Shown here piece after piece: positions 2-64,000 of a DNA stretch of 64,000 nucleotides (position 1 is the first letter of the stretch; each line of letters opens with the position of its first letter). Both the position numbers and the translations under genes were made by a program. The DNA lies in sequence record MK373784.1; one strand, written 5' to 3'. The stretch comes from Escherichia phage vB_EcoM_MM02. Below the pieces are notes generated by a model. The model saw only the letters and a program-made list of their open reading frames with translations, did not search any database and was not told where the DNA came from.

Positions 2-633
<632 letters not shown>

Positions 634-634
<1 letters not shown>

Positions 635-864: not shown

Positions 865-1289
865 TGTATCTTATCCCTGAATCTTATGAATTGGTACTCG
901 AAAATGTCGAAGCACTTATTCCTGAAGCACAGGGCCGAATCGATGCATTGTCTTCTGCTCTCGATATTGACGATATAAATACTATTATCGAGAACATGCT
1001 TGAAACTGAAACGGATTTAGCTGTTGCAATGGCTTCCATTATTAATGAAGAACAGTTAAATGAGTTTATCGTTAAACATGTTTCTTCTCGTGGTGAAGTC
1101 ACCCGCACTAAAGACCGTAAAACTCGTGAACGTAACGCGTTCCAAACAACTGGTCTTTCTAAAGCAAAACGTAGACAAATCGCTCGTAAGGTCGTTAAAG
1201 CTAAAAAAGCTAACCCTTCAGGCCAAGTTAAAGGCTTGCGTAAGCGTAAAAAAGCTCTTAAACGTCGTAAAGCATTAGGATTAAGCTAA
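864..1289 (+). CDS. 68: prohead core protein gp68
   Basis: 141 aa, basic C-terminus; synteny; ATGA start/stop overlaps on both sides. Confidence 0.8.
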
Positions 1290-1930: not shown

Positions 1931-1933
1931 ATA
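1926..1933 (+). promoter_or_regulatory. T4-type late promoter TATAAATA (gene 22)
   Basis: Exact TATAAATA ~30 bp upstream of ATG 1964. Confidence 0.6.
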
Positions 1934-1963
1934 ATAATGTAATCTAAACCACAGGACACTAAA

Positions 1964-2776: not shown

Positions 2777-2793
2777 TTTAAAGGTTAACACAA

Positions 2794-4362
2794 ATGACTA
2801 CTATCAAAACTAAAGCTCAGCTCGTAGACAAATGGAAAGAACTGCTGGAAGGTGAAGGCCTGCCGGAAATCGCTAATAGCAAGCAGGCTATTATCGCTAA
2901 AATCTTCGAAAACCAGGAAAAAGATTTCGAAGTATCCCCTGAATATAAAGACGAGAAAATCGCTCAGGCATTTGGTTCTTTCTTGACCGAAGCTGAAATT
3001 GGTGGTGACCATGGTTATAATGCTCAGAACATCGCAGCAGGTCAAACCTCTGGTGCAGTAACCCAAATTGGGCCGGCAGTTATGGGTATGGTTCGTCGTG
3101 CTATTCCTAATCTGATCGCTTTTGATACTTGTGGTGTTCAGCCTATGAACAGCCCGACCGGTCAGGTATTTGCTCTCCGTGCAGTATATGGTAAAGACCC
3201 TATCGCTGCTGGCGCTAAAGAAGCTTTCCATCCGATGTATGCTCCAGATGCGATGTTCTCTGGTCAGGGTGCTGCTAAGAAATTCCCAGCTCTGGCTGCT
3301 GACACTACTACTGTTGTAGGTGATATCTATACTCACTTCTTCCAAGAAACTGGTACTGTATATCTGCAAGCTTCTGCTGTCGTAACACTTGATTCTGGTG
3401 CAACTGATGCAGCTAAATTAGATGCAGAAGTTAAGAAACAAATGGAAGCTGGTGCACTGGTAGAAATCGCTGAAGGTATGGCTACTTCTATCGCTGAACT
3501 CCAGGAAGGTTTCAACGGTTCTACCGATAACCCATGGAATGAAATGGGCTTCCGTATCGATAAACAAGTTATCGAAGCTAAATCTCGCCAGCTGAAAGCT
3601 GCTTACTCTATCGAATTAGCACAAGACCTCCGTGCAGTACACGGTATGGATGCTGATGCTGAACTGAGCGGTATTCTGGCTACAGAAATTATGCTAGAAA
3701 TCAACCGTGAAGTTGTTGATTGGATTAACTACTCTGCACAGGTTGGTAAATCTGGTATGACCCTGACTCCGGGTTCTAAAGCTGGTGTATTTGACTTCCA
3801 GGACCCGATTGATATCCGTGGTGCTCGTTGGGCCGGTGAAAGCTTTAAATCTCTGTTGTTCCAGATTGATAAAGAAGCAGTTGAAATTGCTCGTCAAACC
3901 GGTCGTGGTGAAGGTAACTTCATTATCGCTTCCCGTAACGTAGTTAACGTACTGGCTTCAGTTGATACTGGTATTTCTTACGCTGCACAGGGTCTGGCTT
4001 CTGGTTTTAATACCGACACTACTAAGTCTGTATTTGCCGGTGTACTTGGTGGTAAATACCGCGTATACATCGACCAGTATGCTAAACAGGATTACTTCAC
4101 CGTTGGTTACAAAGGCGCTAACGAAATGGATGCAGGTATTTACTATGCTCCTTACGTTGCACTTACCCCGCTGCGTGGTTCCGATCCTAAGAACTTCCAG
4201 CCGGTAATGGGCTTTAAAACTCGTTACGGTATCGGTGTTAACCCGTTTGCTGAAAGTTCCCTGCAGGCTCCAGGTGCTCGCATCCAGTCCGGTATGCCAT
4301 CTATCCTGAACAGCCTTGGTAAGAACGCTTACTTCCGCCGTGTATATGTAAAAGGCATCTAA
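2794..4362 (+). CDS. 23: major capsid protein gp23
   Basis: 522 aa; N-terminus and body read as near-identical to T4 gp23 from memory (..LPEIANSKQAIIAKIFENQEKDF..). Confidence 0.95.
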   Translation: MTTIKTKAQLVDKWKELLEGEGLPEIANSKQAIIAKIFENQEKDFEVSPEYKDEKIAQAFGSFLTEAEIGGDHGYNAQNIAAGQTSGAVTQIGPAVMGMVRRAIPNLIAFDTCGVQPMNSPTGQVFALRAVYGKDPIAAGAKEAFHPMYAPDAMFSGQGAAKKFPALAADTTTVVGDIYTHFFQETGTVYLQASAVVTLDSGATDAAKLDAEVKKQMEAGALVEIAEGMATSIAELQEGFNGSTDNPWNEMGFRIDKQVIEAKSRQLKAAYSIELAQDLRAVHGMDADAELSGILATEIMLEINREVVDWINYSAQVGKSGMTLTPGSKAGVFDFQDPIDIRGARWAGESFKSLLFQIDKEAVEIARQTGRGEGNFIIASRNVVNVLASVDTGISYAAQGLASGFNTDTTKSVFAGVLGGKYRVYIDQYAKQDYFTVGYKGANEMDAGIYYAPYVALTPLRGSDPKNFQPVMGFKTRYGIGVNPFAESSLQAPGARIQSGMPSILNSLGKNAYFRRVYVKGI

Positions 4363-4386
4363 TCTTAATTGATTAAATCTTATTTT

Positions 4387-4404
4387 GGGAGACTTCGGTC
4401 TCCC
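4387..4404 (+). terminator. intrinsic terminator after gene 23 (UUCG tetraloop + T-run)
   Basis: gggagac-ttcg-gtctccc followed by attttt. Confidence 0.7.
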
Positions 4405-4414
4405 ATTTTTGGTT

Positions 4415-4684
4415 TTATTTCTGTGCAATTTCGATGTAAGTTTTCAAAATATTTTGCCAATTAGGCATACCTTCTTGGACATATGCCGGAGAACCGTCTT
4501 TGTTTTTGAATGATGCAAGTTTATCAGTGGCCCAATAGCCTTTAGCTCGAGCTTCAGAATCAATTTTCATCCATACTTTGTTGAAGGCATTACCATTAAC
4601 TTTTGCACCATATTTTTCTACTAACTTAACTGCTTCAGCTTCCAGAACTTTTAAAGTATCTCGTAAGAAACGTGCTTTAGTCAT
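4415..4684 (-). CDS. hypothetical early protein, 89 aa, opposite strand between genes 23 and 24
   Basis: ATG 4682-4684, SD GAGGAG, early-type promoter upstream (GTTTAC -35 at ~4739-4744); occupies the T4 segD position. Confidence 0.5.
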   Translation of the reverse strand: MTKARFLRDTLKVLEAEAVKLVEKYGAKVNGNAFNKVWMKIDSEARAKGYWATDKLASFKNKDGSPAYVQEGMPNWQNILKTYIEIAQK

Positions 4685-4715
4685 TTTGTTTACTCCTCTG
4701 TAGTTGATAAGTCTA

Positions 4716-4744
4716 TAGTATCACATACCAAATACGTTGTAAAC
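4716..4744 (-). promoter_or_regulatory. early promoter (GTTTAC-N17-TACTAT)
   Basis: Sigma70-like elements upstream of 89-aa ORF. Confidence 0.45.
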
Positions 4745-4750
4745 AATCTT

Positions 4751-4758
4751 TATAAATA
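4751..4758 (+). promoter_or_regulatory. T4-type late promoter TATAAATA (gene 24)
   Basis: Exact TATAAATA ~28 bp upstream of ATG 4786. Confidence 0.65.
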
Positions 4759-4785
4759 ATCTATATCACATAAGGAAAAAATGCA

Positions 4786-6069
4786 ATGAGTAAAATCCAA
4801 AAATTATTGCGTGAATCTACAACGTCTACTAGCAACTCAATCGGTCGCCCAAATCTCGTTGCTTTGACTCGCGCTACGACTAAATTAATATATTCTGACA
4901 TTGTAGCAACACAAAGAACTAATCAACCTGTTGCTGCTTTTTATGGTATCAAATATCTTAACCCAGATAACGAATTCACATTTAAAACCGGTGCTACTTA
5001 TGCTGGCGAAGTTGGATATGTAGACCGAGAAAAAATTACTGAACTCACAGAAGAATCAAAAGTCACACTAAATAAAGGTGATTTTTTCAAATATAATAAT
5101 ATCGTCTATAAAGTGTTAGAAGATACACCATTTGCAGATATTCAAGAAAGTGATCTAGAATTAGCTCTTCAGATTGCAGTCGTTCATTTAAAGGTACGGT
5201 TATTTTCAGATGCAGCGGTAACAAGCAAATTTGAAAGCTCTGATAGCGAAATTTCTGATGCAAGATTCCAGATTAATAAATGGCAAACTTCAGTCAAATC
5301 TCGTAAACTTAAAACTGGCCTCACGGTTGAATTAGCGCAAGATTTGGAAGCGAATGGATTTGATGCCCCTAACTTCTTAGAAGATTTGCTTGCTACTGAA
5401 ATGGCTGATGAAATTAATAAAGATATTCTTCAGTCTTTAATTACTGTATCGAAACGTTATAAAGTTACTGGAATTACTGACACCGGATTTATTGACTTGA
5501 GCTATGCATCCGCTCCAGAAGCAGGTCGTTCATTATATCGAATGGTGTGTGAAATGGTATCACACATTCAAAAAGAGACAACTTATACTGCAACGTTTTG
5601 TGTAGCCTCAGCTCGTGCAGCTGCTATTCTTGCTGCTTCTGGTTGGTTAAAACATAAGCCAGAAGATGACAAGTATCTTTCACAAAATGCTTATGGATTC
5701 TTGGCAAATGGATTACCTCTTTACTGCGATACCAACAGTCCGTTAGATTATGTTATTGTGGGTGTTGTAGAAAATATCGGCGAAAAAGAAATTGTAGGGT
5801 CCATCTTTTATGCTCCATACACTGAAGGAGTAGATTTAGATGACCCGGAACATGTTGGTGCATTTAAAGTTGTAGTTGATCCAGAAAGCTTGCAACCGTC
5901 TATCGGATTATTGGTTAGATATGCTTTATCAGCAAATCCTTACACAGTAGCAAAAGACGAAAAAGAAGCGAGAATAATTGATGGTGGGGACATGGATAAA
6001 ATGGCAGGACGTTCAGACTTGTCTGTTTTACTCGGTGTTAAATTGCCTAAAATTATTATAGATGAATAA
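4786..6069 (+). CDS. 24: capsid vertex protein gp24
   Basis: 427 aa; late promoter TATAAATA at 4751-4758; synteny after 23. Confidence 0.9.
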   Translation: MSKIQKLLRESTTSTSNSIGRPNLVALTRATTKLIYSDIVATQRTNQPVAAFYGIKYLNPDNEFTFKTGATYAGEVGYVDREKITELTEESKVTLNKGDFFKYNNIVYKVLEDTPFADIQESDLELALQIAVVHLKVRLFSDAAVTSKFESSDSEISDARFQINKWQTSVKSRKLKTGLTVELAQDLEANGFDAPNFLEDLLATEMADEINKDILQSLITVSKRYKVTGITDTGFIDLSYASAPEAGRSLYRMVCEMVSHIQKETTYTATFCVASARAAAILAASGWLKHKPEDDKYLSQNAYGFLANGLPLYCDTNSPLDYVIVGVVENIGEKEIVGSIFYAPYTEGVDLDDPEHVGAFKVVVDPESLQPSIGLLVRYALSANPYTVAKDEKEARIIDGGDMDKMAGRSDLSVLLGVKLPKIIIDE

Positions 6070-6080
6070 ACAAAAAAAAA

Positions 6081-6096
6081 GGGACCTTACGGTCCC
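6081..6096. terminator. bidirectional terminator between gene 24 and rnlB
   Basis: A9 - gggacc ttac ggtccc - T5. Confidence 0.7.
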
Positions 6097-6103
6097 TTTT
6101 TCG

Positions 6104-7102
6104 TTATGATACTAATTCAATCCATGCAGGACGCAGAACATCTTGCACCATTCGGACTAATTCTTTCTTAACAAGATTCGGATTATCGGATGATGTTAAT
6201 ACAATACCTTCACGAGAAGTTTCTTCCAGAATATCTTGAACAGTCAATCCCATCACTTTGCCAAAATCTTTTGGCGTTACAGTCCCAATCTTAGAAATCA
6301 CATTATTAACACGGTTTAATGTAACATAACAAGCTAGGACATCAAGCAAGTTTTTGTCAATTTCGGTTAATGGAACCTGAGTTTTAATAGGCTTATCAGA
6401 CTTTTTCTTTTCACTGAATTTAGAGTTCTTACACTTAATAGCTACACGAGTACCGTTTGGCAGCCATTTAGGGAAACAAGGCTTCAGAACATAACCTTCT
6501 GCCGTATTATCGCCAATAACATTAGCATCAAATACGCAATTATTTGCTTCGACAAGGTCTTCCGATGCCGTGGCGTTATAAGCGGCTAAGACAGAATCAA
6601 GGTCGTTTGGAATCATGATAAGAGCATCAAATGTGCCACGACCAAGCATTGGTGCCATTTTAAAACCGAATTCATTACAGAAATCTTGCATTTCGTAATC
6701 GGTCAAATACGTATTATCACCACTTTCTGTATTGATAAGGATATCGAACACATAAAAATCTTTTTCACCGTAGTCAACACCTTTCTGGATTCCACCACCA
6801 GCGAATTCACCAAAGACCTGATATGATACAGCTCGAGAACTACCCATTACTTCTTGAACGTTTTTAATAGCTTTATCATACTTCTTGAGTACAATTTCAT
6901 AACCATAAAAATCTTCTGCTGGAAGAATAGGGCCTGTGCGCTTGGCGCATGTGACGTTGTCACGTTCAATTATTAACGAGAAGTTAGTCCCATGGATTTT
7001 CTCACGTGCTACCCAAACACCAGTAGTCAAACCATTAGTGTAGAGTTTTTCAATAAACTTAGAGTTGTAGTGGTTTTCAAGACTGCTGTATTTCTTAAAC
7101 AT
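6104..7102 (-). CDS. rnlB: RNA ligase 2 (Rnl2)
   Basis: 332 aa; nucleotidyltransferase motif KIHGTN near N-terminus; position after gene 24 as T4 24.1/rnlB. Confidence 0.85.
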
Positions 7103-7221
7103 AAATCACCATTATAAATAATAATATCAAAATAATTAGCAGAGACTCTGTCTCTGACCAGATGTTTAATTTGAATGGATAGAACCTAGATTCATTATAC
7201 CATCAAAAAATGTAAAGCATA

Positions 7222-7473
7222 TTAGAACTTGATTTCTATCCAATGACCATCACGCTGGTCGTGATTAATTTTGTACTGAAAGCCGTTATCACGAAGCCAT
7301 TGACCGACTTGTTCAGTTATAGTTAAATCGTTCTTTGACGGGTAGTATGTGAATTGTGTCTGGCCTTTGTCAGCGGCTTTCTCTGCCATCACAGAGAAGT
7401 TAGTAATAAAATCACTCAACAAATTAGCTTTAGTGGCCAGTGCCCTTTCTCTTAATTCCTGTGCAAAACTCAT
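7222..7473 (-). CDS. hypothetical protein, 83 aa
   Basis: ATG ORF in T4 24.2/24.3 position. Confidence 0.45.
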   Translation of the reverse strand: MSFAQELRERALATKANLLSDFITNFSVMAEKAADKGQTQFTYYPSKNDLTITEQVGQWLRDNGFQYKINHDQRDGHWIEIKF

Positions 7474-7664
7474 TTCTTCACCTTTTTGTTAATCAAACGT
7501 TTACGGTATACAACTTTTTCTTTTGCTTTAAACTTTGACCGAGCTGTCTCGGCTTTAGTCCATAGTAATCCAACTTCTTTAGGTTGTAAACCAATTTTTT
7601 GAGCAATTTCTACGAATGAAAATCCCGCCTCATGTAATGTATAAACTTCAACTTCAGCTCTCAT
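7470..7664 (-). CDS. small hypothetical protein with possible helix-turn-helix
   Basis: ORF track starts at TTG 7670; in-frame ATG at 7664; FSFVEIAQKIGLQPKEV segment is HTH-like; basic C-terminus. Confidence 0.4.
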   Translation of the reverse strand: MRAEVEVYTLHEAGFSFVEIAQKIGLQPKEVGLLWTKAETARSKFKAKEKVVYRKRLINKKVKK

Positions 7665-7745
7665 AATCAATCCCGTATTATTTGGTTTGTGCCATTATAT
7701 ACATCAATCTCAAGTTGTGTTTTGTATGCTTTAAAAACGAAGAAA

Positions 7746-7759
7746 GGGGCCGAAGCCCC
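7746..7759 (-). terminator. terminator after hoc
   Basis: ggggc-cgaa-gcccc; minus strand followed by U-rich run. Confidence 0.6.
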
Positions 7760-7765
7760 TTACGA

Positions 7766-8896
7766 TTATGGATATGTATAGATGATACCAGTTTCCAAAG
7801 CAGTTTTATGGATGATGTATCCATTACGTGATTCTTGAACATCAACTTCCGGATAGTCTTTCATCATCTTCTGAAGAGTGTAACGATGCAGGTAGTATTT
7901 ACTATCTGGATCTTCAGTTTTCCAATCTTTACCTTCTTCAGTCATTTTTTGGATTTCATCCATAACCCACCAACCGCACCAGATGTAAGCCGAAGTACGA
8001 TGTGGAAGAGGATGAACATAAGGTAGTTCACCTTCTGGTTCTGGAGCAACTTTATCAGTCACTTGGACTTGACCTTCTGCTGTAATAGTTTTGCTATCAT
8101 AATCAGTAGCAGTAACAGTTGCAGTAACTTCAATAGTTTGACTTCCAATAGATGAGGTATCAACGGTATATACATTAGTTGACCCTTCTACAGGAGAAGA
8201 ATCTTTCTTCCATGAATACGCAATTTGCGCTTCTTCTGGAGCATCCGTAACATTAGCCGTAAATGTAGCCGAAGCATCTTGCTGAACGTTAATAGAAGGA
8301 GGAGTCAATGTAACCTGTGGATTCATTGTCTTCTTATTAACCGTTAATGATACTTCATTCGAAGTAACTTCCTTTGCATCATAATCTGTCGCAGTTACTT
8401 GGGCTACACATTTAATTCTTTTTACTCCACTTGTAGTTGGAGTATAGCTAAATGTAGAGTTAGTTTCTCCACCAACCTGTGAATCATCTACATACCACTG
8501 ATACGTAGCAGACGCTCCAGCTGGTTGAGAAGCTAAGGCAGCAGTAAATTGAACTGGGGTTCCAATTACTCCAGCTGAAGGACTAGCAGGAGTTACGGCT
8601 AAGGTAGTCGTCTGTGTCTTATTTTGAACTGTGATAGTTGTAGTAGCTTCTGCTGTTTCAGCGTCAGTATCAGGAATAGTATTTGTTGCAACAACTTTAA
8701 TTGTTTTTGTTCCAGCAGGTCCTTTTAACACGTAATCAAAAGTTTCTGCTGATCCTTCTTGGGGAGCATCGTCTACACTCCATGCATAGGTAATAGTTCC
8801 ACCTCCAGTTTCACCACTGGGAGTAGCAGTAAACTGCTTAGTCTCATCTATAACTCCAGTAGATGTTTTAGGAGTTATATCAACTGTAAAAGCCAT
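7766..8896 (-). CDS. hoc: Hoc, highly immunogenic outer capsid protein
   Basis: 376 aa, repeated Ig-like beta-rich segments; position between 24.x and inh. Confidence 0.8.
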   Translation of the reverse strand: MAFTVDITPKTSTGVIDETKQFTATPSGETGGGTITYAWSVDDAPQEGSAETFDYVLKGPAGTKTIKVVATNTIPDTDAETAEATTTITVQNKTQTTTLAVTPASPSAGVIGTPVQFTAALASQPAGASATYQWYVDDSQVGGETNSTFSYTPTTSGVKRIKCVAQVTATDYDAKEVTSNEVSLTVNKKTMNPQVTLTPPSINVQQDASATFTANVTDAPEEAQIAYSWKKDSSPVEGSTNVYTVDTSSIGSQTIEVTATVTATDYDSKTITAEGQVQVTDKVAPEPEGELPYVHPLPHRTSAYIWCGWWVMDEIQKMTEEGKDWKTEDPDSKYYLHRYTLQKMMKDYPEVDVQESRNGYIIHKTALETGIIYTYP

Positions 8897-8905
8897 AAGT
8901 TATCC

Positions 8906-9574
8906 TTATTTTAATGTTACGAAAGAAGAATTACGAGTTTCACGAATTAGAACTGATCCATCGCGATTAATATAATAAATTAAGCTAAATAATGTTTGGT
9001 GAGCAGAAGCGTGAACAAAACTGGTTGGACGAGATTTCCAATCTGGGGTTTCGGCTATCCATTGATAAATCCACCAAGGAACAGTAACATATCCTGGGGC
9101 TTTGCCTAATTTAATGAGTGTAGGACTAAAATTTTCAGGCAGAACAAATTTTACTTCTTTATTTACCTCTGGATCAGGCTCTTTTTCAGATTCAACAACC
9201 TGAGTAATTGCTTCTTCGAATTTATCATGGTCGAATTCTTTTTCTTGTTCGACAACTTCTAATACTTCAACTTGTTCTGTTGGAGAATCAAACAACAGAA
9301 TAGCTTCTTCTTTAACTTCTTCGTTGGTGAAATTAACACCGTCCGCATCATCTGCGGCAGTAATTAAATCGGTGATAGATAATCCATCGGTTTCAGGTAA
9401 TGGTTCATCAGCCAGTGCGTTAAGAGCTTCTTCGATATCAATAACAATATTATCGAATGATTTTGTTTTCTTAACACTAATGCCAAATTGTTCCGCATAT
9501 TCAAACAGTTTAGCTTTGGCTTCCTTTTTATCAGAAAGAGCACGTAACTCTTCAATATAGTCTTTATCGATCAT
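8906..9574 (-). CDS. inh: Inh-like protein (inhibitor of prohead protease)
   Basis: 222 aa, acidic; synteny between hoc and uvsW. Confidence 0.6.
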   Translation of the reverse strand: MIDKDYIEELRALSDKKEAKAKLFEYAEQFGISVKKTKSFDNIVIDIEEALNALADEPLPETDGLSITDLITAADDADGVNFTNEEVKEEAILLFDSPTEQVEVLEVVEQEKEFDHDKFEEAITQVVESEKEPDPEVNKEVKFVLPENFSPTLIKLGKAPGYVTVPWWIYQWIAETPDWKSRPTSFVHASAHQTLFSLIYYINRDGSVLIRETRNSSFVTLK

Positions 9575-9587
9575 GATATTTCCTCAT

Positions 9588-9595
9588 TATAAATA
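9588..9595 (+). promoter_or_regulatory. T4-type late promoter TATAAATA (uvsW)
   Basis: Exact TATAAATA ~30 bp upstream of ATG 9625. Confidence 0.6.
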
Positions 9596-9624
9596 TAACT
9601 ATATTTATTACATGGTAATTTGAC

Positions 9625-11139
9625 ATGACTGACATTAAAGTACATTTTTATGATTTTAGTCACGTGCGCATTGAATGCGACGAAAGTACGTTTTACGAAC
9701 TTCGTGACTTTTTTAGCTTTGAAGCCGATGGGTACAAATTCAACCCTCGTTACAAATATGGGCAATGGGATGGTAGAATTCGACTTTTAGATTACAACCG
9801 TTTGTTACCATATGGACTTGTAGGACAAATAAAAAAGTTCTGTAACAATATGAGTTATTCTGTATGGATTGACCCTAAAATCTTTGAGACTGAAGACCTT
9901 ACCAGGGAAGATTTTGACGCATGGCTTTCTAAACAAGAAATTTATTCAGGCAACGCCAAAATCGAACCACATTGGTATCAAAAAGATGCAGTATATGAAG
10001 GACTAGTTAATCGTCGTCGAATTTTAAACCTTCCGACATCAGCAGGTAAATCACTAATCCAAGCACTTTTAGCTCGGTATTATCTAGAGAACTATGAAGG
10101 TAAAATTCTCATTATCGTCCCTACAACAGCATTGACAACCCAGATGGCTAATGATTTTGTTGATTATCGCTTGTTTAGTCATTCGATGATTAAGAAAATT
10201 GGCGGTGGTGCCGATAAAGCGGACAGAGCTAAAAACGACGCTCCAATTATTGTTGGCACATGGCAAACGGTAGTTAAGCAGCCTAAAGAATGGTTCTCTC
10301 AGTTCGGTATGATGATGAACGATGAATGCCACTTAGCAACAGGCAAAAGTATTTCTTCAATCATCTCAGGATTAAATAATTGCATGTTCAAATTTGGTTT
10401 ATCTGGCTCATTAAGAGACGGAAAAGCCAATGTAATGCAGTACGTAGGTATGTTCGGCGAAATCTTCCGTCCTGTTAGCACGTCTAAATTAATGGAAGAT
10501 GGACAGGTAACTGAGCTTAAGATTAATAGTATTTTCCTTCGTTATCCAGACGAATTCGCCACCAAATTAAAAGGTAAAACATACCAAGAAGAAGTTAAAA
10601 TTATTACTGGACTAAAACGACGTACAAAGTGGATTGCTCAACTTTCAGTCAAATTGGCTAAGAAAGACGAGAACGCCTTTGTAATGTTTAAACACGTTAC
10701 ACACGGTAAAGAAATATTTGAAGCTATTAAAGAGCTTGGATACGAAAAAGTTTATTACGTATCAGGTGAAGTTGATACTGAAACACGTAACGCGCTTAAA
10801 GTCATGGCAGAAAATGGTAAAGGCATTATTATTGTCGCATCATATGGAGTATTCTCTACTGGTATTTCAGTCAAGAATCTTCATCATGTTATTTTTGCCC
10901 ATGGTGTTAAATCAAAAATTATCGTACTTCAAACCGTAGGTCGTGTGCTTCGCAAGCATGGTTCTAAATCTGTTGCTACAGTTTGGGATCTCATCGACGA
11001 TGCAGGTGTAAAACCTAAATCATTAAATACTAAAAAGAAGTATACTCATCTTAATTACTTGTTAAAACACGGTATTGATCGTATCCAACGTTACGCTGAT
11101 GAGAAATTTAACTATGTAATGAAAACAATTAATTTATAA
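9625..11139 (+). CDS. uvsW: UvsW DNA/RNA helicase
   Basis: 504 aa; SF2 helicase motifs (LPTSAGKS Walker A, DECH box); late promoter TATAAATA at 9588-9595. Confidence 0.9.
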   Translation: MTDIKVHFYDFSHVRIECDESTFYELRDFFSFEADGYKFNPRYKYGQWDGRIRLLDYNRLLPYGLVGQIKKFCNNMSYSVWIDPKIFETEDLTREDFDAWLSKQEIYSGNAKIEPHWYQKDAVYEGLVNRRRILNLPTSAGKSLIQALLARYYLENYEGKILIIVPTTALTTQMANDFVDYRLFSHSMIKKIGGGADKADRAKNDAPIIVGTWQTVVKQPKEWFSQFGMMMNDECHLATGKSISSIISGLNNCMFKFGLSGSLRDGKANVMQYVGMFGEIFRPVSTSKLMEDGQVTELKINSIFLRYPDEFATKLKGKTYQEEVKIITGLKRRTKWIAQLSVKLAKKDENAFVMFKHVTHGKEIFEAIKELGYEKVYYVSGEVDTETRNALKVMAENGKGIIIVASYGVFSTGISVKNLHHVIFAHGVKSKIIVLQTVGRVLRKHGSKSVATVWDLIDDAGVKPKSLNTKKKYTHLNYLLKHGIDRIQRYADEKFNYVMKTINL

Positions 11140-11151
11140 GGGCTTCGGCCC
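11140..11151 (+). promoter_or_regulatory. intercistronic GC hairpin (UUCG loop) without U-tract between uvsW and uvsW.1
   Basis: gggc-ttcg-gccc directly followed by SD AGGAG and ATG. Confidence 0.4.
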
Positions 11152-11164
11152 TTAGGAGATAAAA

Positions 11165-11395
11165 ATGGTACTTGAATTTAAACAATTTTTATACGAAGCA
11201 TCTATTGACGAATTCATGGGTAAAATTGCTAGTTGTCATACCCTAGAAGGGCTTGAAGAATTGGAAGCTTATTATAAGAAACGTATAAAAGAAACGGAAT
11301 TAAAAGATACAGATGATATTTCTGTCAGGGATGCCTTAGCAGGTAAGCGTGCCGAACTTGAAGGCGATGATGAGGATGTGGAAGAAGACTTCTAA
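11165..11395 (+). CDS. uvsW.1: UvsW.1-like small acidic protein
   Basis: 76 aa ORF directly after uvsW, SD AGGAG. Confidence 0.65.
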   Translation: MVLEFKQFLYEASIDEFMGKIASCHTLEGLEELEAYYKKRIKETELKDTDDISVRDALAGKRAELEGDDEDVEEDF

Positions 11396-11455
11396 TTAAA
11401 AAAAAGGGCCCTTCCAAAAAGGTTGGGCCAAAAACCATAGGCAAAAAAGGTAACA

Positions 11456-11623
11456 CTATAGTAAAAGTTGGGTTTCGTTCAATTGCTCTTCTGAACTTTC
11501 TGAAACCGGCAATTGTTGGACATAATTATAACAAGGACCAGGATGTGCTGGACCTTTGTCTGTTTCAACAACCAATGCAGAATCGATTGGAGTTTTACAG
11601 ACAACACAAATCTTATCTGACAT
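11456..11623 (-). CDS. small hypothetical protein, 55 aa
   Basis: ATG 11621-11623 with strong SD AGGAGG; below 60-aa ORF-track cutoff; hand-translated MSDKICVVCKTPIDS... Confidence 0.4.
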   Translation of the reverse strand: MSDKICVVCKTPIDSALVVETDKGPAHPGPCYNYVQQLPVSESSEEQLNETQLLL

Positions 11624-11655
11624 GATTGCCTCCTAAGTTGAAATTACATATCTAT

Positions 11656-11880
11656 TTATACAACTCTCATATGCATATCAATGCCCATATCTTTAGAATA
11701 AAAATATTCATCAAGATATCCGGCAAATTTTCCTTTAATATAAAGGACGTCTTCACCACACGGGTGGTCTGCCAGGATACGAATATCCTGACGACGTAGA
11801 CGATACTTTTCCATTAAGAATTTAATTTCAGTTTCAAATTCTTCGTCATTATTAAAGGCATCTTCAATTGAATAACGCAT
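11656..11880 (-). CDS. hypothetical protein, 74 aa
   Basis: ATG 11878-11880 overlaps uvsY stop; T4 uvsY.-1 position. Confidence 0.5.
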   Translation of the reverse strand: MRYSIEDAFNNDEEFETEIKFLMEKYRLRRQDIRILADHPCGEDVLYIKGKFAGYLDEYFYSKDMGIDMHMRVV

Positions 11881-12293
11881 TATTGCCCCGCTTCAAATTC
11901 TCGCATATCCTGGATATGTTTAAGTGCAAAACTACGAGACTTAACTGCGTCAAGTGCACCACTACAGAACTCAAGTAAAATTCCCCAGTATTGTAAAGTA
12001 GTCTCTATTTTAAGCACATCTTTATCTGCAGCCAGGACAGTTTTCATTTCAGATTTCTCGTATCGGTCCATACTGAATTCATCACCGTCACCTCGTCCCG
12101 AGTAGTAGTCTAATCTTGCTTTTAGAGCAGTTTTCTTCTGAGTCTCTATACGCAACATTTCTTTACGAATAAATGAGTGCTTACGTAGCCATTTGCTGTA
12201 TAACTTAACATTATTCGCCGTCTCATATTGCAACTTTGTCATATCAATAGCTAAGTCTGCGTCTAACTCTTCCTGTAAATCTTCCAGCTTCAT
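11880..12293 (-). CDS. uvsY: UvsY recombination mediator
   Basis: 137 aa, same length as T4 UvsY; long identical stretches (LDYYSGRGDGDEFSMDRYEKSEMKTV). Confidence 0.9.
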   Translation of the reverse strand: MKLEDLQEELDADLAIDMTKLQYETANNVKLYSKWLRKHSFIRKEMLRIETQKKTALKARLDYYSGRGDGDEFSMDRYEKSEMKTVLAADKDVLKIETTLQYWGILLEFCSGALDAVKSRSFALKHIQDMREFEAGQ

Positions 12294-12372
12294 AATATTC
12301 TCTCTTTAACTAATAATCTCCCGGCTGTATCGGAAGGACCTAAAACCATTATACATAGGTCGCCTTGAAGCA

Positions 12373-12771
12373 TTACACTCTATTGCTTGACGCTAACTGA
12401 AGTTTAATTTGTTCAATATCGTCAGGGTTGTCTACGACCGAAAATCTAATCTCTACTATAACCGTATAGTCATCATATACTGGCGTTACACTTACAGAAA
12501 GTTTGTCGATGCGTGGCTCATAGTTACGAACAGCTGCCTGGATATTACGCTCAATCGTATCGGCTGTAAGTGGTGTCATGTTCTCGAAAAGTTCATCGAC
12601 CAAATCACATCCAAATTCAGGGTCGAAGGGGCGTGAGCCTTTTCTAGTTGTCACTATACCAAGAAGACTATTTTTAATAGAACGAAGTCCTACAGAACGA
12701 GCAACGTCCTTGTTCCAATCCATACGCATTTCTGGATCGATATCTGAATAAAGTTTATTGATATTAGACAT
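12373..12771 (-). CDS. 25: baseplate wedge protein gp25
   Basis: 132 aa; synteny 25-26-51-27-28-29. Confidence 0.85.
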   Translation of the reverse strand: MSNINKLYSDIDPEMRMDWNKDVARSVGLRSIKNSLLGIVTTRKGSRPFDPEFGCDLVDELFENMTPLTADTIERNIQAAVRNYEPRIDKLSVSVTPVYDDYTVIVEIRFSVVDNPDDIEQIKLQLASSNRV

Positions 12772-13397
12772 TATAGTAACTCAAAGAATTCTTTGAGGCC
12801 TCGTATTGTGTGAACGTGTGACGCCCCACATTTGGGACATTTAATAGGGGTTGCCAGATAAATTGACGGCGATACTAAAAGATTTTTAATATTGATCATG
12901 TCATCTTCTGTTATAAGGCCGTAAAGGTCGTTTATTTCTGCTTCAGTTAAATCTTCAACAGGGATGGACTCTCCATTGACAAAAACGGCCTCAATACATG
13001 AAGCAATCATTAATGCGATATTTTTATCGTCAAATAATTTAGGTTGACGGAACTTAATTTTAATACCGCTGAACGAATACCAGGGATCGGCCTGTTCATC
13101 TAATTGAGTGTGCAATAAATTCATATAGACTTGAAATGAATGCCCACAGGAACAATTCCAGGTGTGTTCTTGATTCACTTCACCTAATGAATGGGCCCAC
13201 AGATTTACCAACAATAGCTCGGCTTCTTGTTTAGTCAAGTTTTTAGCGTTAGAGCAATTAGTGATAATATTGTTCACTGCTGATTCAATAGTACCGGTAG
13301 CCCGTGCACCTATGAGTCCTAAATATTCTTTTAAAGTAAAGGCTCTACAATTCACTTCTTTATCGCCTAAACGTACGGTAAACGTATATTTGTACAT
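12771..13397 (-). CDS. 26: baseplate hub protein gp26
   Basis: 208 aa; SD AAGGAG; divergent from gene 51 across a palindromic late promoter. Confidence 0.8.
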   Translation of the reverse strand: MYKYTFTVRLGDKEVNCRAFTLKEYLGLIGARATGTIESAVNNIITNCSNAKNLTKQEAELLLVNLWAHSLGEVNQEHTWNCSCGHSFQVYMNLLHTQLDEQADPWYSFSGIKIKFRQPKLFDDKNIALMIASCIEAVFVNGESIPVEDLTEAEINDLYGLITEDDMINIKNLLVSPSIYLATPIKCPKCGASHVHTIRGLKEFFELL

Positions 13398-13415
13398 GTT
13401 AACTCCTTTATTGTG

Positions 13416-13427
13416 TATTTATAAATA
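13416..13427. promoter_or_regulatory. palindromic bidirectional late promoter TATTTATAAATA (genes 26 and 51)
   Basis: 12-bp perfect palindrome containing TATAAATA on both strands between divergent genes 26 and 51. Confidence 0.55.
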
Positions 13428-13444
13428 ATAGAAAAGGAGTAATT

Positions 13445-14197
13445 ATGGCTAATATAATTCGTTGTAAATTACCGGATGGTGTTCATCGTTTTAAGCCGTT
13501 CACCGTAGCGGATTATAGAGACTTTTTACTAGTTAGAAATGATATCGAACATCGTTCGCCGCAAGAACAAAAAGAAATAATTGCCGATCTGATTGATGAT
13601 TATTTTGGCGAGTACCCTAAAACATGGCAACCATTTATATTCCTGCAAGTTTTTGCAGGCTCTATAGGCAAAACAAAAGTTCCCGTTATTTTCACTTGCC
13701 CTAAATGCTCTAAAGAAAAAACTGCACCATTTGAGATATATCAAAAAGAACTAGTCGAACCTGAACTTGATGTTGCTGGTATAAAAATACGTTTTTCTTT
13801 CCCTGAAAAGTTTTATGACAACAAGGCATTAATGATAAGTGAAAACATAAAAGAAATATATTATAATGATGAATGGTACCCATGGAATGATTTGACTGAA
13901 GAGAACCAAATCCAAGTAATAGAAGCAATAGACATTGACTCGCTCGAGAAGGTTATTGCTTCTATGAATCCTATTAATTTGACCCTTAGATTAGGTTGTT
14001 GTGAACGACATGTTAAAACATATACTGATATCTTAGAGGTTTTTAAATTGTTAGTTAACCCTGATGAGATTTTTACATTCTATCAGATAAACCATTCACT
14101 GGTAAAGAGTCAATACACATTGGATTCTATTATGCAAATGATTCCTGTTGAACGTGGTATTGCTTTAACATTAGTAGAAAAGGACCATAAAAAATGA
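13445..14197 (+). CDS. 51: baseplate hub assembly protein gp51
   Basis: 250 aa; late promoter TATAAATA 13420-13427, SD AAGGAG. Confidence 0.8.
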
Positions 14198-15366
14198 AAG
14201 TATTCCAACGTCCAGGATATCCTAACTTAAGCGTTAAATTATACCAAGATTATTCGGCTTGGCAAGAAAATAGATACGTTGAACTCGCGGCAACAATAAC
14301 AACTTTAACCATGCGAGATTCGTTATATGGAAGAAATGAAGGGATTCTTCAATTTTATGACACTAAAAACATCCACACTAAAATGGATGGTAGACAGATA
14401 GTCCAAATCTCTGTTTCAAATTCAAACACACCTCTCCAAGTTAGAACTCGAATTTACGGATGCAGACATTATTCTGTGTCTGTGGACTCAAAAGGTGACA
14501 ATATTATTGCAATTGAGCTTGGAACAATACATTCTATAGAGAACCTTAAATTTGGGCGTCCATTCTTCCCGGATGCAGGCGAATCTATACGTGAAATGTT
14601 AGGTGTCATATACAAAGACCGTGCGTTAATTACTCCGCCAATAAACACTATTAATGCTTATGTTCCTGATATCCCTTGGACAAGCACATTTGATGATTAT
14701 TTGGCATATGTCAGAGAATTAGGACTTGCTACAGCGAGTGATAAGTTCGTATTCGTATGGCAAGATATTTTAGGCGTAAACATGATTGACTACGATACTC
14801 TTATTGGTCAGGAAGGCATTAAGATGATTGTAGGTGAGCCAAATACTGTAGGTCAGTATATTCAAGAGCTTGAGTATCCATTAGTATGGGATTTTACCTG
14901 GATGACTAAAGCCAACCAATTTACAAGAGACCCTATTAAAAACGCCACAATATTCGCCCATTCATTTTTAGATACATCTATTCCGGTTATTGTTACAGGT
15001 GATGGTGATAATGCTATTCTTGTGTCAAGATCCGGCGGATATTCCGAAATGACCTATCGTAATGGATTTGAAGAAGCAAGTCGTCTTCAGACAATGGCTC
15101 AATATGACGGATATACTAAATGCACTACTACAGGCAATTTTAACATAACGCCTGCTACTAAAATTATATTTGTTGACCAAAAGAACCAATTCAAATCCGA
15201 ATTTTACGTAGATGAAGTTATTCATGAGTTATCAAATAACAACTCACAAACTCATCTGTACATGTTTACCAACTCAATGGTGTTAGAACCTGTTAACCCA
15301 GTTAAGGTTAAAAATGAACTTAAATCTGATTCTACCTCTAAAGAAAATAATTCTACCACAATCTAA
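14194..15366 (+). CDS. 27: baseplate hub protein gp27
   Basis: 390 aa; ATGA overlap with gene 51. Confidence 0.85.
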
Positions 15367-15847
15367 TAAAAAGGTAATGATTCCCAAATTAGGGCTCAAA
15401 CATTATAATCTTTTAAAGGACGTTAAAGGCCCTGATGAAAACATGAAAATCTTAGCTGATTCTATTTGTAAAAATATGAGTCCCGCAGATTTTGATTTTG
15501 CATGTCTACACATATTGGAATTTAATAACAAACTTAAGTCTGAAGTTGAAAAAGACGGATTCACTTATAAACTAGATGACGTCTATGTATGCCAACGAAC
15601 AGAATTCCAATTCCAAGGTAATACTTTTTATTTTAGACCCCCAGGCAAATTTGAACAATTCGCTACAATCAGTGAAATGCTATCAAATTGCTTAATAAAA
15701 GTTAATGACGAAGAGAAAGAAATTTCTTTCCTTGAGATGCCTGCTTTTGTAATCAAATGGGCAGAAGACCTTTCGACAACTATTGCTATTCCAGGCCCTA
15801 ATGGTCCTATTAAGGGTGTAGCAGAAATTATTGGATTGCTTGAATGA
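15314..15847 (+). CDS. 28: baseplate hub distal subunit gp28
   Basis: 177 aa; overlaps 3' end of gene 27. Confidence 0.8.
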
Positions 15848-17671
15848 AACCTGAAGAAATGAAATCCATGCGTAGAAATAAGGTCATTGCCGATAATAAA
15901 CCACAAAAAGTAGCTGCAACAGCAGCTACCGATTCATTAGAAGCATTGAATGACATTTCATCAAAACTAGACGATGTCCAAGCCGCGTCTGAACTCACAT
16001 CACAAAGTGTAGAAGATAAAGGCAATGGAATCATTGAATCAATTGGAGACTTAAAGAATTCGACAGATAATACAAGGCAATGGAATCATTGAATCAATTG
16101 GAGACTTAAAGAATTCGACAGATAATACTGCTGAAGGCACAGAGCTTATCGCAGAAGTTATTGAAAAACAAACTGAAGTCACTAAAAGTATAAACGAAGT
16201 TTCTAGTGCAATAAGCTCTAAGTTAGACCGATTAGCTACATTATTAGAGCAAAAATTACAAACATCTACCGCTATTCAAAATACAGGAGGCACCTCTCTT
16301 GAAGTAATTGAGAACGCAATACCTGTTAAAGTGGTTGAGAATGAAACTTCTGATGAGTTGTTTAAAGCATTCCCTACACCTGAAAAGATTGATAATAAGC
16401 CAGACGAAGATTTCTTCCCAGCACCGGTTCAAGAAAGTGCTAATTCTACTTCCGATTCTAAAGGCGGAATTAGCTTTAAATTGAGCGATAAAATTGCAAT
16501 GCTCACCAAAACAGTTCAAACCGGGTTTAATAAATCAATATCAATTTCAGACAGAATTGCTGGAATGCTTTTCAAATACACTATAACGGCTGCTATTGAA
16601 GCAGCAAAAATGGCCGCACTTATTCTTGGTATTGTTATCGGTATTGATTTATTGATAGTCCATTTCAAATATTGGACAGACAAGTTCACTTCTGCCTGGG
16701 ATTTATTTGATGAAAACTTTACTAAATTCTCTGACGAAGCTAAAGAGTGGGGTAAATTCTTAAGTGATATATTCACTTCTATTGACTCTATAAAACAATT
16801 GTGGGAAGCTGGAGACTGGGGTGGTTTAACCGTTGCTATTGTCAAAGGTGTAGGAACAGCATTAATGAATTTAGGTGAACTAATTCAATTAGGAATGGCT
16901 AAACTCTCCGCGTCTATATTGCGTGCTATAGGTTTTGGTGATACCGCTGACGAAATAGAAGGACGTGCTTTGGAAGGATTCCAAGAAACTACTGGGAACA
17001 AATTAAAGAAAGAAGACCAAGAGAAAGTCGCTAAATATCAAATGAAGCGTGACGATGGGGAATTAGGAACCGTTTCTAAAGGCCTTGATATGTTACAACG
17101 TGGCAAAACATTCGTTACTAACTGGGTTCGTGGTAATGACAATAAAGAAGAGTTTAGTACAAGCGATGAGCGTGCTGCGGAATCAGCAAAATTAAAAGAG
17201 TTACCTGAAGAGGAGCGTAAAGAGGCGTATATAAAAGCTAATGAAACTCGTGCGGCACTGGTTAGATTTGAGGATTATATCGATAAAATCGATATGACTA
17301 ATCCAGAAAATGCTAAAAACGTCGAGAAGTCTTATGCTGATTTAAGTAAACTTATTAAAGACCCTGAACTTAATAAAACTCCTGTTGTTAAAAAGGAATT
17401 AGATGCTAGATTTGAAAAGCTAAATAATAAAATGGCTGAAGCCAAAAAGGCTCAGACCACAGTTAAGCCTGAATCTTCGTCTAAATCTCCGGAAGCAAAA
17501 CAAGTTCAGTCAATAGAGAAAGGACGTGCTTCTGAATCTAAACAACAGCAACCGGTAGCGGCGATTAGTAACACAAATAATGTCGTCAAAAAGAATACCG
17601 TAGTCCAGAATATGACCCCTGTAACAAGTACAACGGCTCCTGGAATTTTCCATGCCACCGGTGTTAATTAA
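15844..17671 (+). pseudogene. 29: gene 29 (baseplate hub / tail-length determinator) interrupted by +1 frameshift from a 55-bp tandem duplication
   Basis: Frame-1 ORF 15844-16092 ends at TGA (..DNTRQWNH*); frame 2 open from copy 2 to 17671; removing one copy gives a single 591-codon ORF. Confidence 0.85.
16019..16128 (+). repeat. perfect direct tandem duplication, 2 x 55 bp (16019-16073 and 16074-16128)
   Basis: Both copies read aaggcaatggaatcattgaatcaattggagacttaaagaattcgacagataatac. Confidence 0.95.
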
Positions 17672-17679
17672 GGATTATT

Positions 17680-18789
17680 ATGATTAGTGTAAAAGAAATA
17701 GTAGTAGATGCAAAGGATTTAAATAAAGCAATCCCAGTCACAGAAAGTGCTGGGCAAAGCACTAAAACCGAAACAACTACTAAAACTTATGTTGCTCAAT
17801 TTCCTACAGGAAGAGCAGCCGGAAATGACTCCACAGGAGACTTCCAGGTAACAGACCTTTATAAGAATGGATTATTATTTACCGCGTACAATATGTCTGC
17901 ACGCGATTCAGGATCCCTCAGGAATTTACGTCCGGCATACGCCGGGACTTCATCTAACGGTATCATATCAGATTTAACTGATAATGTGAAAGATGCAGTG
18001 ACTAAATTCTCTAATGGGTTGCTTCCTGCTGGAGCTAATAAATCAACCATAAATAAAACTCCTGTTGCTAATATACTTTTGCCACGTTCCAAATCTGACG
18101 TTGATACAACTTCACATCGTTTTAATGATATCGGTGATAGTCTTATTACTAAAGGTGGAGGTACTGCTACGGGTGTTTTAAGTAACATTGCTTCTACTGC
18201 AGTCTTTGGTGCATTAGATTCTATTACCCAAGGGCTTATGGCCGATAATAACGAACAGATTTATACGACTTCTCGTAGTATGTATGGCGGTGCTGAGAAC
18301 CGTACTAAAGTCTTTACATGGGATTTAACTCCGCGTTCAACTGAAGACCTTATGGCTATTATAAACATTTACCAGTATTTTAACTATTTCTCATATGGTG
18401 AGACCGGTAAATCACAGTACGCCCAAGAGATTAAAAGTTATTTAGACGAATGGTACCGTTCAACGTTTATTGAGCCTATGACGCCAGATGATGCAGTAAA
18501 AAATAAGACATTGTTTGAAAAGATTACTGCGTCATTAACAAATGTATTAGTTGTAAGCAACCCTACAATTTGGATGGTTAAAAACTTTGGTTATACGTCT
18601 AAATTTGATGGATTAACTGACGTATTTGGTCCATGTCAAATTCAAAGCGTACGTTTTGATAAAACTCCAAATGGACAATTTAATGGTCTCGCTGTTGCTC
18701 CTAACTTACCATCAACATTTACGTTAGAGATAACAATGCGAGAAATTATTACATTAAACCGTTCTTCACTTTATGCGGGGACTTTCTAA
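17680..18789 (+). CDS. 48: baseplate tail tube cap gp48
   Basis: 369 aa; synteny after gene 29. Confidence 0.85.
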   Translation: MISVKEIVVDAKDLNKAIPVTESAGQSTKTETTTKTYVAQFPTGRAAGNDSTGDFQVTDLYKNGLLFTAYNMSARDSGSLRNLRPAYAGTSSNGIISDLTDNVKDAVTKFSNGLLPAGANKSTINKTPVANILLPRSKSDVDTTSHRFNDIGDSLITKGGGTATGVLSNIASTAVFGALDSITQGLMADNNEQIYTTSRSMYGGAENRTKVFTWDLTPRSTEDLMAIINIYQYFNYFSYGETGKSQYAQEIKSYLDEWYRSTFIEPMTPDDAVKNKTLFEKITASLTNVLVVSNPTIWMVKNFGYTSKFDGLTDVFGPCQIQSVRFDKTPNGQFNGLAVAPNLPSTFTLEITMREIITLNRSSLYAGTF

Positions 18790-29092: not shown

Positions 29093-29674
29093 TTATTCAC
29101 CACAAAAGTTTCGGATTTGTTCCCAATTCAGAGAACGAAGATTATTACGAGAGTACTGAATTACTTCAATACCGGCTTGTTTTAGAATGTCTGCCCAATT
29201 TTCAGGAGATCTGTCATATAATTCTGCGTATACAACCTTTTTAATACCTGACTGTGTAATAGCTTTAGTGCAATCAGGACACGGAGAAAGCGTAGTATAT
29301 AACGTAGCACCTTCAATAGAATTACCTTTACGAGCTGCAAACAAAATTGCATTCAGTTCCGCATGGATTTCGTTATTAGCAGACCATGCACTATGAGCGG
29401 CCCGATGTTCTTTAGCCAAAACAAAATTATCTGCCCGTCCAAATGCTGTAGTGCCTTCTTTATGCCCAGCAACGATGACCGGGCTTGGTTTATTCTTCAA
29501 CCAACCGTTTTCGGATGCATGTTCGCAACAGTTTGTACCACCTGAAGGAGAGCCATTATAACCTGTAGAAATAATGCGTCCATCTTTTTCAATGACGGCG
29601 CCAACTTTCCATGAACAACATTTTGATTCTTGAGAAATCAGATATGCAATCTGAAGGTATGTGCTAGCTTTCAT
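29093..29674 (-). CDS. cd: dCMP deaminase
   Basis: 193 aa; zinc-binding HAELNAI and SPCPDC motifs; N-terminus matches T4 Cd pattern. Confidence 0.9.
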   Translation of the reverse strand: MKASTYLQIAYLISQESKCCSWKVGAVIEKDGRIISTGYNGSPSGGTNCCEHASENGWLKNKPSPVIVAGHKEGTTAFGRADNFVLAKEHRAAHSAWSANNEIHAELNAILFAARKGNSIEGATLYTTLSPCPDCTKAITQSGIKKVVYAELYDRSPENWADILKQAGIEVIQYSRNNLRSLNWEQIRNFCGE

Positions 29675-30666
29675 TATTGAACCTTATTAATATAAGTTAA
29701 CAGCTCTTTAGTTTGTTCCCAACTGATGCACGCATCGGTAACGGAAACGCCATAGGACATATTATCAGAAATTTTTTGATTTCCTTCATGTAGGAATGAT
29801 TCTATCATAATTCCTTTGACCAAATCATTAGCTGCTAAATTTTTACCAATACCAATTTGATTGCTATAATGTCCATCAGCGTTTGCATGGCTACAGTCAA
29901 CCATTACATAATGATTCAGACCTACTGCACTTGCTTTGTTAGAAGCTTCTTGAATATCAGAAGAATGATAGTTCGGGCCGTTGGTCCCGCCACGCAATAC
30001 GATATGCGTATTCTGATTACCTTCAGCTTCAACAATGCCTACAGTACCATCGACGTCCATACCCATATACCGATGAGGCCAGGCGGCACTATACATCGCG
30101 TCTGTAGCTACTTTAATAGAACCATTGGTTGCGTTCTTGAAGCCTACGCACATCGGTAGACCTGAAGCAATTTCACGATGTGTCTGACTTTCAGTCGTAC
30201 GGGCGCCAATAGCAACCCATGAGAAAATACCAGAAAGATACTTAATCGTGAATGGGTCTAATACTTCAGTTGCTAATGGAAGTCCCATACGTAGAAGTTT
30301 ACGACACAATGTTCGTGCAACTATAAGACCGTGGTTCATATCAAAACTTCCGTCAAGATATGGATCATTTACAAGACCTTTCCAACCTACGGTAGTTCGA
30401 GGCTTTTCAAAATAAACGCGCATCACTAACAGAACATTAGGAAGACGAGTTTGAAGTTCAGCCAGACGTTTGCCGTATTCAACAGCAGCAATAGGGTCAT
30501 GAATTGAACAAGGACCTACAACAATAAGTTTGCGTGGGTCTTCACCATTCATAATCGAATTAACTTGTTCGCGATGAGAAGCCACTTGTGATGCGTAAGC
30601 TTCCGACAAAGGAATAATCTCGGCCAGTTCTTTTGGAGAAATAAGTTTTCCGACGACAGGTAACAT
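29674..30666 (-). CDS. 3-deoxy-D-arabino-heptulosonate 7-phosphate (DAHP) synthase, class I (AroG/F/H-like)
   Basis: 330 aa; VVGPCSIHDP, RVYFEKPRTTVGWKGL, GARTTESQTHRE, VMIESFLHEGNQ align along E. coli AroG; stop overlaps cd ATG. Confidence 0.85.
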   Translation of the reverse strand: MLPVVGKLISPKELAEIIPLSEAYASQVASHREQVNSIMNGEDPRKLIVVGPCSIHDPIAAVEYGKRLAELQTRLPNVLLVMRVYFEKPRTTVGWKGLVNDPYLDGSFDMNHGLIVARTLCRKLLRMGLPLATEVLDPFTIKYLSGIFSWVAIGARTTESQTHREIASGLPMCVGFKNATNGSIKVATDAMYSAAWPHRYMGMDVDGTVGIVEAEGNQNTHIVLRGGTNGPNYHSSDIQEASNKASAVGLNHYVMVDCSHANADGHYSNQIGIGKNLAANDLVKGIMIESFLHEGNQKISDNMSYGVSVTDACISWEQTKELLTYINKVQ

Positions 30667-63064: not shown

Positions 63065-63991
63065 TTATTCTGCAAATAATTCAGTAACGTCTGAAATTAC
63101 TTCGTAACGACAAGTACGCATCTTAGCATCGCCATAGTCAACTGGGATAGATACAACATCACGTGGATGAACTTTAACCTTAACAACTTTATCTGAGCTA
63201 GAACCAAAGTGGCGAATATAAGATTTAGCACAAACGTGGAGACCGCGAGAACAGGTTTGAGTATCATCGTCGTTAACTCGAGTACGAGGCATTGAAACAA
63301 CTTTACCTGGGGAGTTATCAAATGTACCACTATAGCAGTCTAAATAGTCCTTACGAACTACTTTCCACGCATAGAAATGACCGTCTTCAGTGATTTCAAT
63401 ATCGTTTGCAACCAAGAAGTCGAATAAACGTTGTACAGCTTTTTCGCTTGGGTTTTCTAACAGGTTTTCAAGGAATGGCAGATAGAATTTAAAGTCTTCA
63501 CCTTTTTCCATAGAATCAATAATACGATTAACCAGGCCAGAACGAATCTCTATACCTTGATAAAATAAACTACCACCTTCAATAACAACATTACCGTCAA
63601 CAAACTTACTAATAGCTTTCTTGATGTTAATAAGTTCGACAGCTTTACTAAGGTTTCCTGCGACCAGATTAGCTTTAATTTCTTCAAAATTTGCATGACT
63701 TGATGGAGTCGCATTGTATGCTACGCGTCCTTCAATAATTGAAATAAATTTAGATGACGCATTCCATACGATTTCAGGACGATGGCCGCCGATAATAGGT
63801 TCATCATTTTCTGGAACTTCTTCAACTTTCGAAGTCTCATCTTCGGCTTTAAAATTCTTAACAATCTTACGAAGAGTATCTGTTGAAATGTCGAAGTAAT
63901 CAGCAATTTCCCGACGGGTCCATTGACCTGATTCAACCAGTCTGTAAGCTTCTAACTGTTCTTCTTTGGACAAGCATTTGATATTGTACAT
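63065..63991 (-). CDS. rIIB: rIIB membrane-associated protein
   Basis: 308 aa; N-terminus MYNIKCL and long blocks (DFLVANDIEITEDG.FYAWKVVR, CSRGLHVC.KSYIRHFGSS) as T4 rIIB. Confidence 0.85.
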   Translation of the reverse strand: MYNIKCLSKEEQLEAYRLVESGQWTRREIADYFDISTDTLRKIVKNFKAEDETSKVEEVPENDEPIIGGHRPEIVWNASSKFISIIEGRVAYNATPSSHANFEEIKANLVAGNLSKAVELINIKKAISKFVDGNVVIEGGSLFYQGIEIRSGLVNRIIDSMEKGEDFKFYLPFLENLLENPSEKAVQRLFDFLVANDIEITEDGHFYAWKVVRKDYLDCYSGTFDNSPGKVVSMPRTRVNDDDTQTCSRGLHVCAKSYIRHFGSSSDKVVKVKVHPRDVVSIPVDYGDAKMRTCRYEVISDVTELFAE

Positions 63992-64000
63992 AATGTTTCC

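Follow-up and report, generated by a model that had tools for sequence, protein, structure and literature searches.

The product of gene 29, gp29, is both the tail tape measure and a component of the hub, and the tail tube polymerises around it, with the C-terminus bound to the gp27 hub and the N-terminus reaching as far as the neck (PMC3004832; PMC12929629). Genetic studies assign gp29 the role of a ruler (cited in PMC12929629). Tape measure variants that alter the length of the tail are represented by T4 gp29 and lambda gpH, and the locus described here resembles them in that a duplication lies within a tape measure gene. According to the genetic literature, in-frame changes in the length of T4 gp29 are reportedly tolerated and alter the length of the tail. 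However, the known viable tape measure variants are in frame, whereas the duplication described here is out of frame and would abolish the protein. Another system that can be compared with the locus is the programmed frameshift of lambda G/GT, with which it shares the presence of two overlapping frames in the tail-assembly gene region. The lambda sites are conserved −1 slippery heptamers located upstream of the tape measure gene, whereas gene 29 as recorded here would need a +1 shift, has no slippery sequence and shows an arrangement that is found in no relative.

A further likeness is to the k-length terminal overlap left by SPAdes and metaSPAdes (CheckV; Philipson et al., 2018), which, as in the present case, is a perfect repeat with the length of a standard k. 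When the template is circular, the contig retains a terminal repeat whose length is exactly k, and among 751,567 contigs the lengths of terminal direct repeats peak at 55, 77, and 99 bp (CheckV, PMC8116208, Extended Data Fig. 3b). The canonical k set comprises 21, 33, 55, 77, 99, and 127 (Lui et al., 2021, PMC8172020). The repeat in gene 29 has a length that is one member of this set and, at the same time, one of the documented artefact peaks. Moreover, the default k values of metaSPAdes, and those of SPAdes for short reads, go up to 55. The likeness extends to the template, since the genome is one that assembles as a circle, and the repeat is absent here from all relatives: being circularly permuted and terminally redundant, T4-type genomes assemble without natural ends, and the related records begin at many different points. 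The difference is that the repeat in gene 29 is internal and tandem, so that rotation or re-joining without trimming is needed to account for its position.

A Perfect Tandem Repeat Within Gene 29

The window analysed here is a stretch of 64,000 nucleotides from the sequence record MK373784.1 of Escherichia phage vB_EcoM_MM02. It represents a segment of a Mosigvirus (T4-type) genome that reaches from gene 20 to rIIB, and over 24 kb it shares 98.6% identity with vB_Eco_mar005P1 and Shigella phage JK45. In the phage collection searched, 98.6% was the best match, and searches of complete E. coli genomes and of plasmids did not recover the sequence either. The gene 29 locus contains the following features:

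15844..17671, plus strand: gene 29 (tape measure / baseplate hub) locus; Pfam PF25671, PHROG 1283
15844..16092, plus strand: truncated gene 29 frame as recorded, 82 aa
16019..16073, plus strand: repeat copy 1, inside gene 29 at native codons 59-77; a single copy is present here in relatives (alignment)
16055..17671, plus strand: downstream open frame, which holds the remaining part of gene 29 (native residues 59-590)
16074..16128, plus strand: repeat copy 2; no match to a junction-spanning 33-mer in viral, metagenome, or genome collections

Two identical 55-bp copies had already been described at this site in the initial annotation, and a direct comparison of 16019-16073 with 16074-16128 confirmed that 55 of 55 bases are the same, so that the copies form a base-perfect tandem pair. 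Tandem Repeats Finder, applied to the window, likewise returned a period of 55 with 2.0 copies, 100% matches and a score of 220, and this array is the sole long perfect array that the program found in the window. The identity extends by zero bases into the flanks, both on the left and on the right, and the length is therefore exactly 55. At the junction the sequence reads ...GATAATAC followed directly by AAGGCAATGG..., with the boundary between the copies at 16073/16074. The number of perfect 55-bp tandem repeats expected by chance in 64 kb is about 64000 x 4^-55, which is effectively never, and the repeat cannot have arisen by chance. An assembly break induced by repeated sequence is ruled out as well, since the 55-mer has no 15-mer in common with the rest of the window.

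The other exact direct repeats of at least 25 bases in the window are a 37-bp pair and a 25-bp pair, and there are no more. The copies of the 37-bp repeat (58782-58818 and 59104-59140) are 322 bp apart and are located between motA and gene 52, where the repeat amounts to a duplication of the regulatory/RBS segment upstream of motA. It flanks an optional ORF of 71 aa on the minus strand (58866-59081) that has no Pfam match. This insert is absent from mar008P4, and a 71-aa ORF is present at the same site in AV110 (segment 14092-14307). The ORF looks like a small cassette that is shuffled via the repeated promoter-proximal sequence.

Reading Frames of Gene 29

Gene 29 is flanked by genes 28 and 48 in the baseplate hub cluster 25-26-51-27-28-29-48-54, which is the same arrangement as in the annotated relatives, and its start overlaps the stop of gene 28 (ATGA, 15844-15847), likewise as in relatives. 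In the record, the frame runs from the ATG at 15844 into a TGA at 16090-16092, as had been noted before, and yields an 82-aa product that ends in ...DNTRQWNH, with 79 residues matching the gp29 of a relative and the last three being out of frame. This apparent frameshift results from the length of the repeat, because 55 is 1 modulo 3. The second frame had been described as open from copy 2 to 17671; its end is indeed at this position, but its start is not in copy 2, as the frame already opens at 16055 inside copy 1. A usable start is missing from this frame, in which the first canonical one is a GTG at 16331 that lacks a Shine-Dalgarno sequence. When one of the copies is removed, gene 29 becomes an ORF of 1773 nt, encoding 590 aa plus the stop, and thus has precisely the 591 codons that the initial annotation had arrived at; a single uninterrupted ORF of ~590 codons is therefore lacking in the gene as recorded, but is present once the gene is collapsed to one copy. 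The identification of the gene as that of T4 gp29 was also correct, since the collapsed ORF matches the Pfam profile PF25671 (T4_Tape_measure) over positions 3-590 of 590 (E = 5e-226). A further match is to PHROG 1283, “baseplate hub subunit and tail length” (E = 7e-229). With the frame shifted after codon 79, gene 29 would be left as a null allele, and such an allele is implausible as the consensus of a propagated phage, because the tail tube is built around gp29 as tape measure and hub.

A phage could escape this consequence if the duplication were real and tolerated, with gp29 being produced either by a +1 (or −2) frameshift within 16055-16092 or in two pieces by reinitiation after the TGA at 16090, yet this is extremely improbable. 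The frames overlap by ~38 nt, so that one +1 shift would suffice for a full-length protein, a rare AGG codon is located inside the overlap, and in-frame changes in gp29 length are said to be tolerated. If the +1 shift were true, the tape measure would be ~18 residues longer, and by either route this would be the first T4-type tape measure found to be split or recoded in nature. However, the zero-frame codons from 16054 to 16087 are AAG AAT TCG ACA GAT AAT ACA AGG CAA TGG AAT CAT, and none of these codons (16054-16089) re-pairs in the +1 frame. An RF2-type CUU-UGA, an X XXY YYZ or a similar motif was not found when the sequence of the frame overlap was read, and a search of 15000-18000 against Rfam at the gathering threshold returned no match, hence no known stimulatory RNA element. 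With respect to reinitiation, no canonical start occurs in frame before the GTG at 16331, which is 240 nt downstream and lacks a Shine-Dalgarno sequence, and no in-frame start is close enough to be served by the AGGAGG at 16285-16290. Furthermore, it is not credible that a recoding signal arose by chance from a perfect duplication that is unique among relatives, and the two-frame arrangement is not conserved, as the frame is single and unbroken in all 151 records and in 10 further assemblies. Frameshifting and reinitiation are thus rejected on sequence grounds (no re-pairing codons, no motif, no usable start). The initial annotation had considered programmed frameshifting unlikely because no slippery site was seen, and this judgement is strengthened by the absence of a re-pairing codon, of an Rfam element and of any relative with the duplication. 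Nothing indicates that the gene 29 duplication exists in virions.

Gene 29 in Related Phages

In the 151 related Mosigvirus records with a match to 15600-16600, the aligned span is 946 bases throughout, not 1001, and falls into two pieces, which indicates that each of them has one copy. The same holds for independent assemblies from Logan, ENA, and NCBI that encode the exact gp48 of the window, where gp29 is intact with 590 aa in 10 of 10 cases. The 33-mer across the copy-copy junction had no match in the viral, metagenome, and genome contig collections, and the truncated 82-aa product has no exact protein on record. In these searches, the 55-bp duplication is private to this sequence. An independent assembly of the same strain was not found via the exact gp48 and gp38 sequences: the contigs that share gp48, when tested at the DNA level, are only ~98% identical to the window, i.e., they are relatives, and 0 of the contigs that share gp38 encode the gp37 allele of the window.

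The gene for gp37, the distal long tail fibre protein (51606-54743, 1045 aa), is strongly divergent from the closest relative over the region 51796-54520, in which only patches of 83-89% identity are found. Neither for gp37 nor for gp34 was an exact protein match found on record, so that the receptor-binding allele of the window is new to the collections searched. Other differences to the closest relative, mar008P4, concern accessory genes. On the minus strand, 29674-30666 codes for a DAHP synthetase I family protein of 330 aa (Pfam PF00793, E = 7e-75), adjoining the dCMP deaminase gene, and this accessory metabolic gene of a T4-type phage is located on ~1.1 kb that is absent from mar008P4. 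Conversely, the nrdA.1 ORF of mar008P4 (a 112-aa open frame, ~295 bp) has no counterpart in the window, where ~85 bp of unrelated sequence is found at 39732-39818.

In an alignment with 12 relatives, the collapsed gene 29 is gapless and has 2-9 amino acid differences, and the synonymous differences far exceed the nonsynonymous ones; with mar007P3 (LR027383.1), for example, there are 15 synonymous and 2 nonsynonymous codon differences. This gapless and mostly synonymous divergence shows that gene 29 has undergone no decay, and the event must therefore be very recent or not biological. The other indels relative to mar008P4 (LR027386.1) that are not a multiple of three are all intergenic or compensated within a few bases, and gene 29 is the sole split gene among the annotated genes of at least 100 aa in the window. 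Within the 64 kb, no lesion other than the 55-bp duplication breaks a frame. Sequence quality that is poor in general is ruled out, as there are no further frame-breaking indels in the 64 kb.

A very recent event could be a real 55-bp tandem duplication in gene 29, present in a defective sub-population or in a non-viable genome that was caught as the consensus. Such a duplication could arise by replication slippage or illegitimate recombination, and it could have reached the consensus through a mixed or metagenomic sample or through complementation by co-infecting wild-type phage. Tandem duplications do occur in T4-type phages, and the intact appearance of gene 29 fits a very recent event. Moreover, an artefact and a real recent duplication predict an identical sequence, and the sequence alone fits the one as well as the other. 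Nevertheless, a real duplication is rather unlikely, since there is no biological reason for a length that exactly equals an assembler k, and a null allele of the tape measure and hub cannot dominate a propagating lysate. In addition, the junction is found in 0 of more than 160 related genomes and assemblies and in no scanned collection, and the record bears signs of rotation after assembly. No microhomology was seen in the sequence at the junction, which also speaks against a real duplication, although this is weak evidence, as ~56% of random junctions likewise have none.

Assembler k and Rotation of the Record

The signs of rotation are located at the end of the window, which comprises the following feature:

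63401..64000, plus strand: window end, the 5' part of rIIB just before rIIA, equal to the conventional end of T4-type records

An alignment of these last 600 bases places base 64000 of the window on the very last base of at least eight related records (MK373774, MK373775, MK327934, MK327933, MK962756, MK962757/NC_054940, OR525701, and MK373782), and the same end corresponds to coordinate 105883 of LR027386.1, between rIIB and rIIA. Since the window ends exactly at the rIIB/rIIA map origin, the record has been rotated after assembly. A circularly permuted genome has no natural ends, and an end on this exact base therefore indicates that the circle was re-joined and re-cut. Neither the coincidence of the window end with the conventional map origin nor that of the repeat length with an assembler k had been part of the initial annotation.

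With a probability of roughly 85%, the 55-bp duplication is a finishing artefact, namely an untrimmed k = 55 overlap that was made internal by rotation to the T4 start. This figure and the confidence expressed for the other readings are separate judgements and need not sum to one. In the proposed sequence of events, short reads of the circularly permuted, terminally redundant genome would assemble as a circle, which the de Bruijn assembler would cut at an arbitrary point, in this case within gene 29. The resulting linear contig would be written with identical first and last k bases, so that k = 55 would give a 55-bp terminal overlap. Subsequently, the contig would be re-circularised and rotated to the rIIA start / rIIB end, according to the T4 convention, with one copy of the overlap left untrimmed. 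The former contig ends would then lie side by side as an internal, perfect tandem repeat of 55 bp. Either of the copies could be regarded as the extra one, and the original ends of the contig would have met at 16073/16074. In a variant of this mechanism, two contigs that are adjacent in the graph and share k bases would be concatenated without trimming, with the same outcome. The assembler was presumably set to k = 55, and the real phage presumably has one copy and an intact gp29. Of the three readings offered initially, namely a sequencing or assembly artefact, a defective variant and a non-viable genome, the first gains support from the match to k = 55, from the rotation and from the existence of a documented class of overlaps.

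Artefacts of another kind are very unlikely to be the source. A chimera formed during library preparation or amplification, an error in long-read consensus or polishing, or imperfect end-trimming by a long-read circulariser can each produce local duplications at contig ends or in the consensus, and duplicated contig ends are described for Circlator. However, errors of these kinds do not favour any particular length and rarely yield base-perfect copies, and the remaining 64 kb lacks the frame-breaking indels that are typical of noisy long-read assemblies. By contrast, the exact 55 bp point towards a k-mer graph.

An overlap of similar appearance is present in a sister record, that of the closest relative mar008P4 (LR027386.1), where bases 1-127 are an exact 127-bp match to bases 167647-167773. 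This record begins at an arbitrary point, within Vs.4, and resembles an unrotated raw contig. The overlap belongs to the same class of artefact as that proposed for gene 29, an untrimmed terminal overlap of the SPAdes type, so that the record is 127 bp too long, and rotation of the record would yield an internal 127-bp tandem repeat. A terminal overlap was also looked for in LR027383.1, where none was found. The presence of an overlap in the one record and its absence from the other indicate that the artefact occurs commonly in these deposits, though not in every one.

Two further deposits, LR027387.1 and LR027390.1, also have a length of 167773 and may share the 127-bp overlap. Another record of unusual length is OM632671.1 (Escherichia phage BEU50), which is unannotated and, with 193,190 bp, exceeds the other Mosigvirus records (164-173 kb) by ~24 kb; it may contain a concatenated or redundant segment.

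Consequences for Annotation and for the Phage

As an untrimmed overlap, the second copy would make the record 55 bp too long, and automated annotation would call gene 29 a pseudogene or two fragments. Such misannotation could mislead comparisons of gene content, completeness checks for phage therapy, and screens for pseudogenes or recoding. A cheap quality filter is therefore suggested, in which perfect tandem or terminal repeats of exactly 21, 33, 55, 77, 99, or 127 bp are flagged in phage and plasmid records; LR027386.1, with its 127-bp terminal overlap, also fails such a filter. For the phage itself, the duplication is almost certainly not a real biological feature, and its gene 29 is almost certainly normal.
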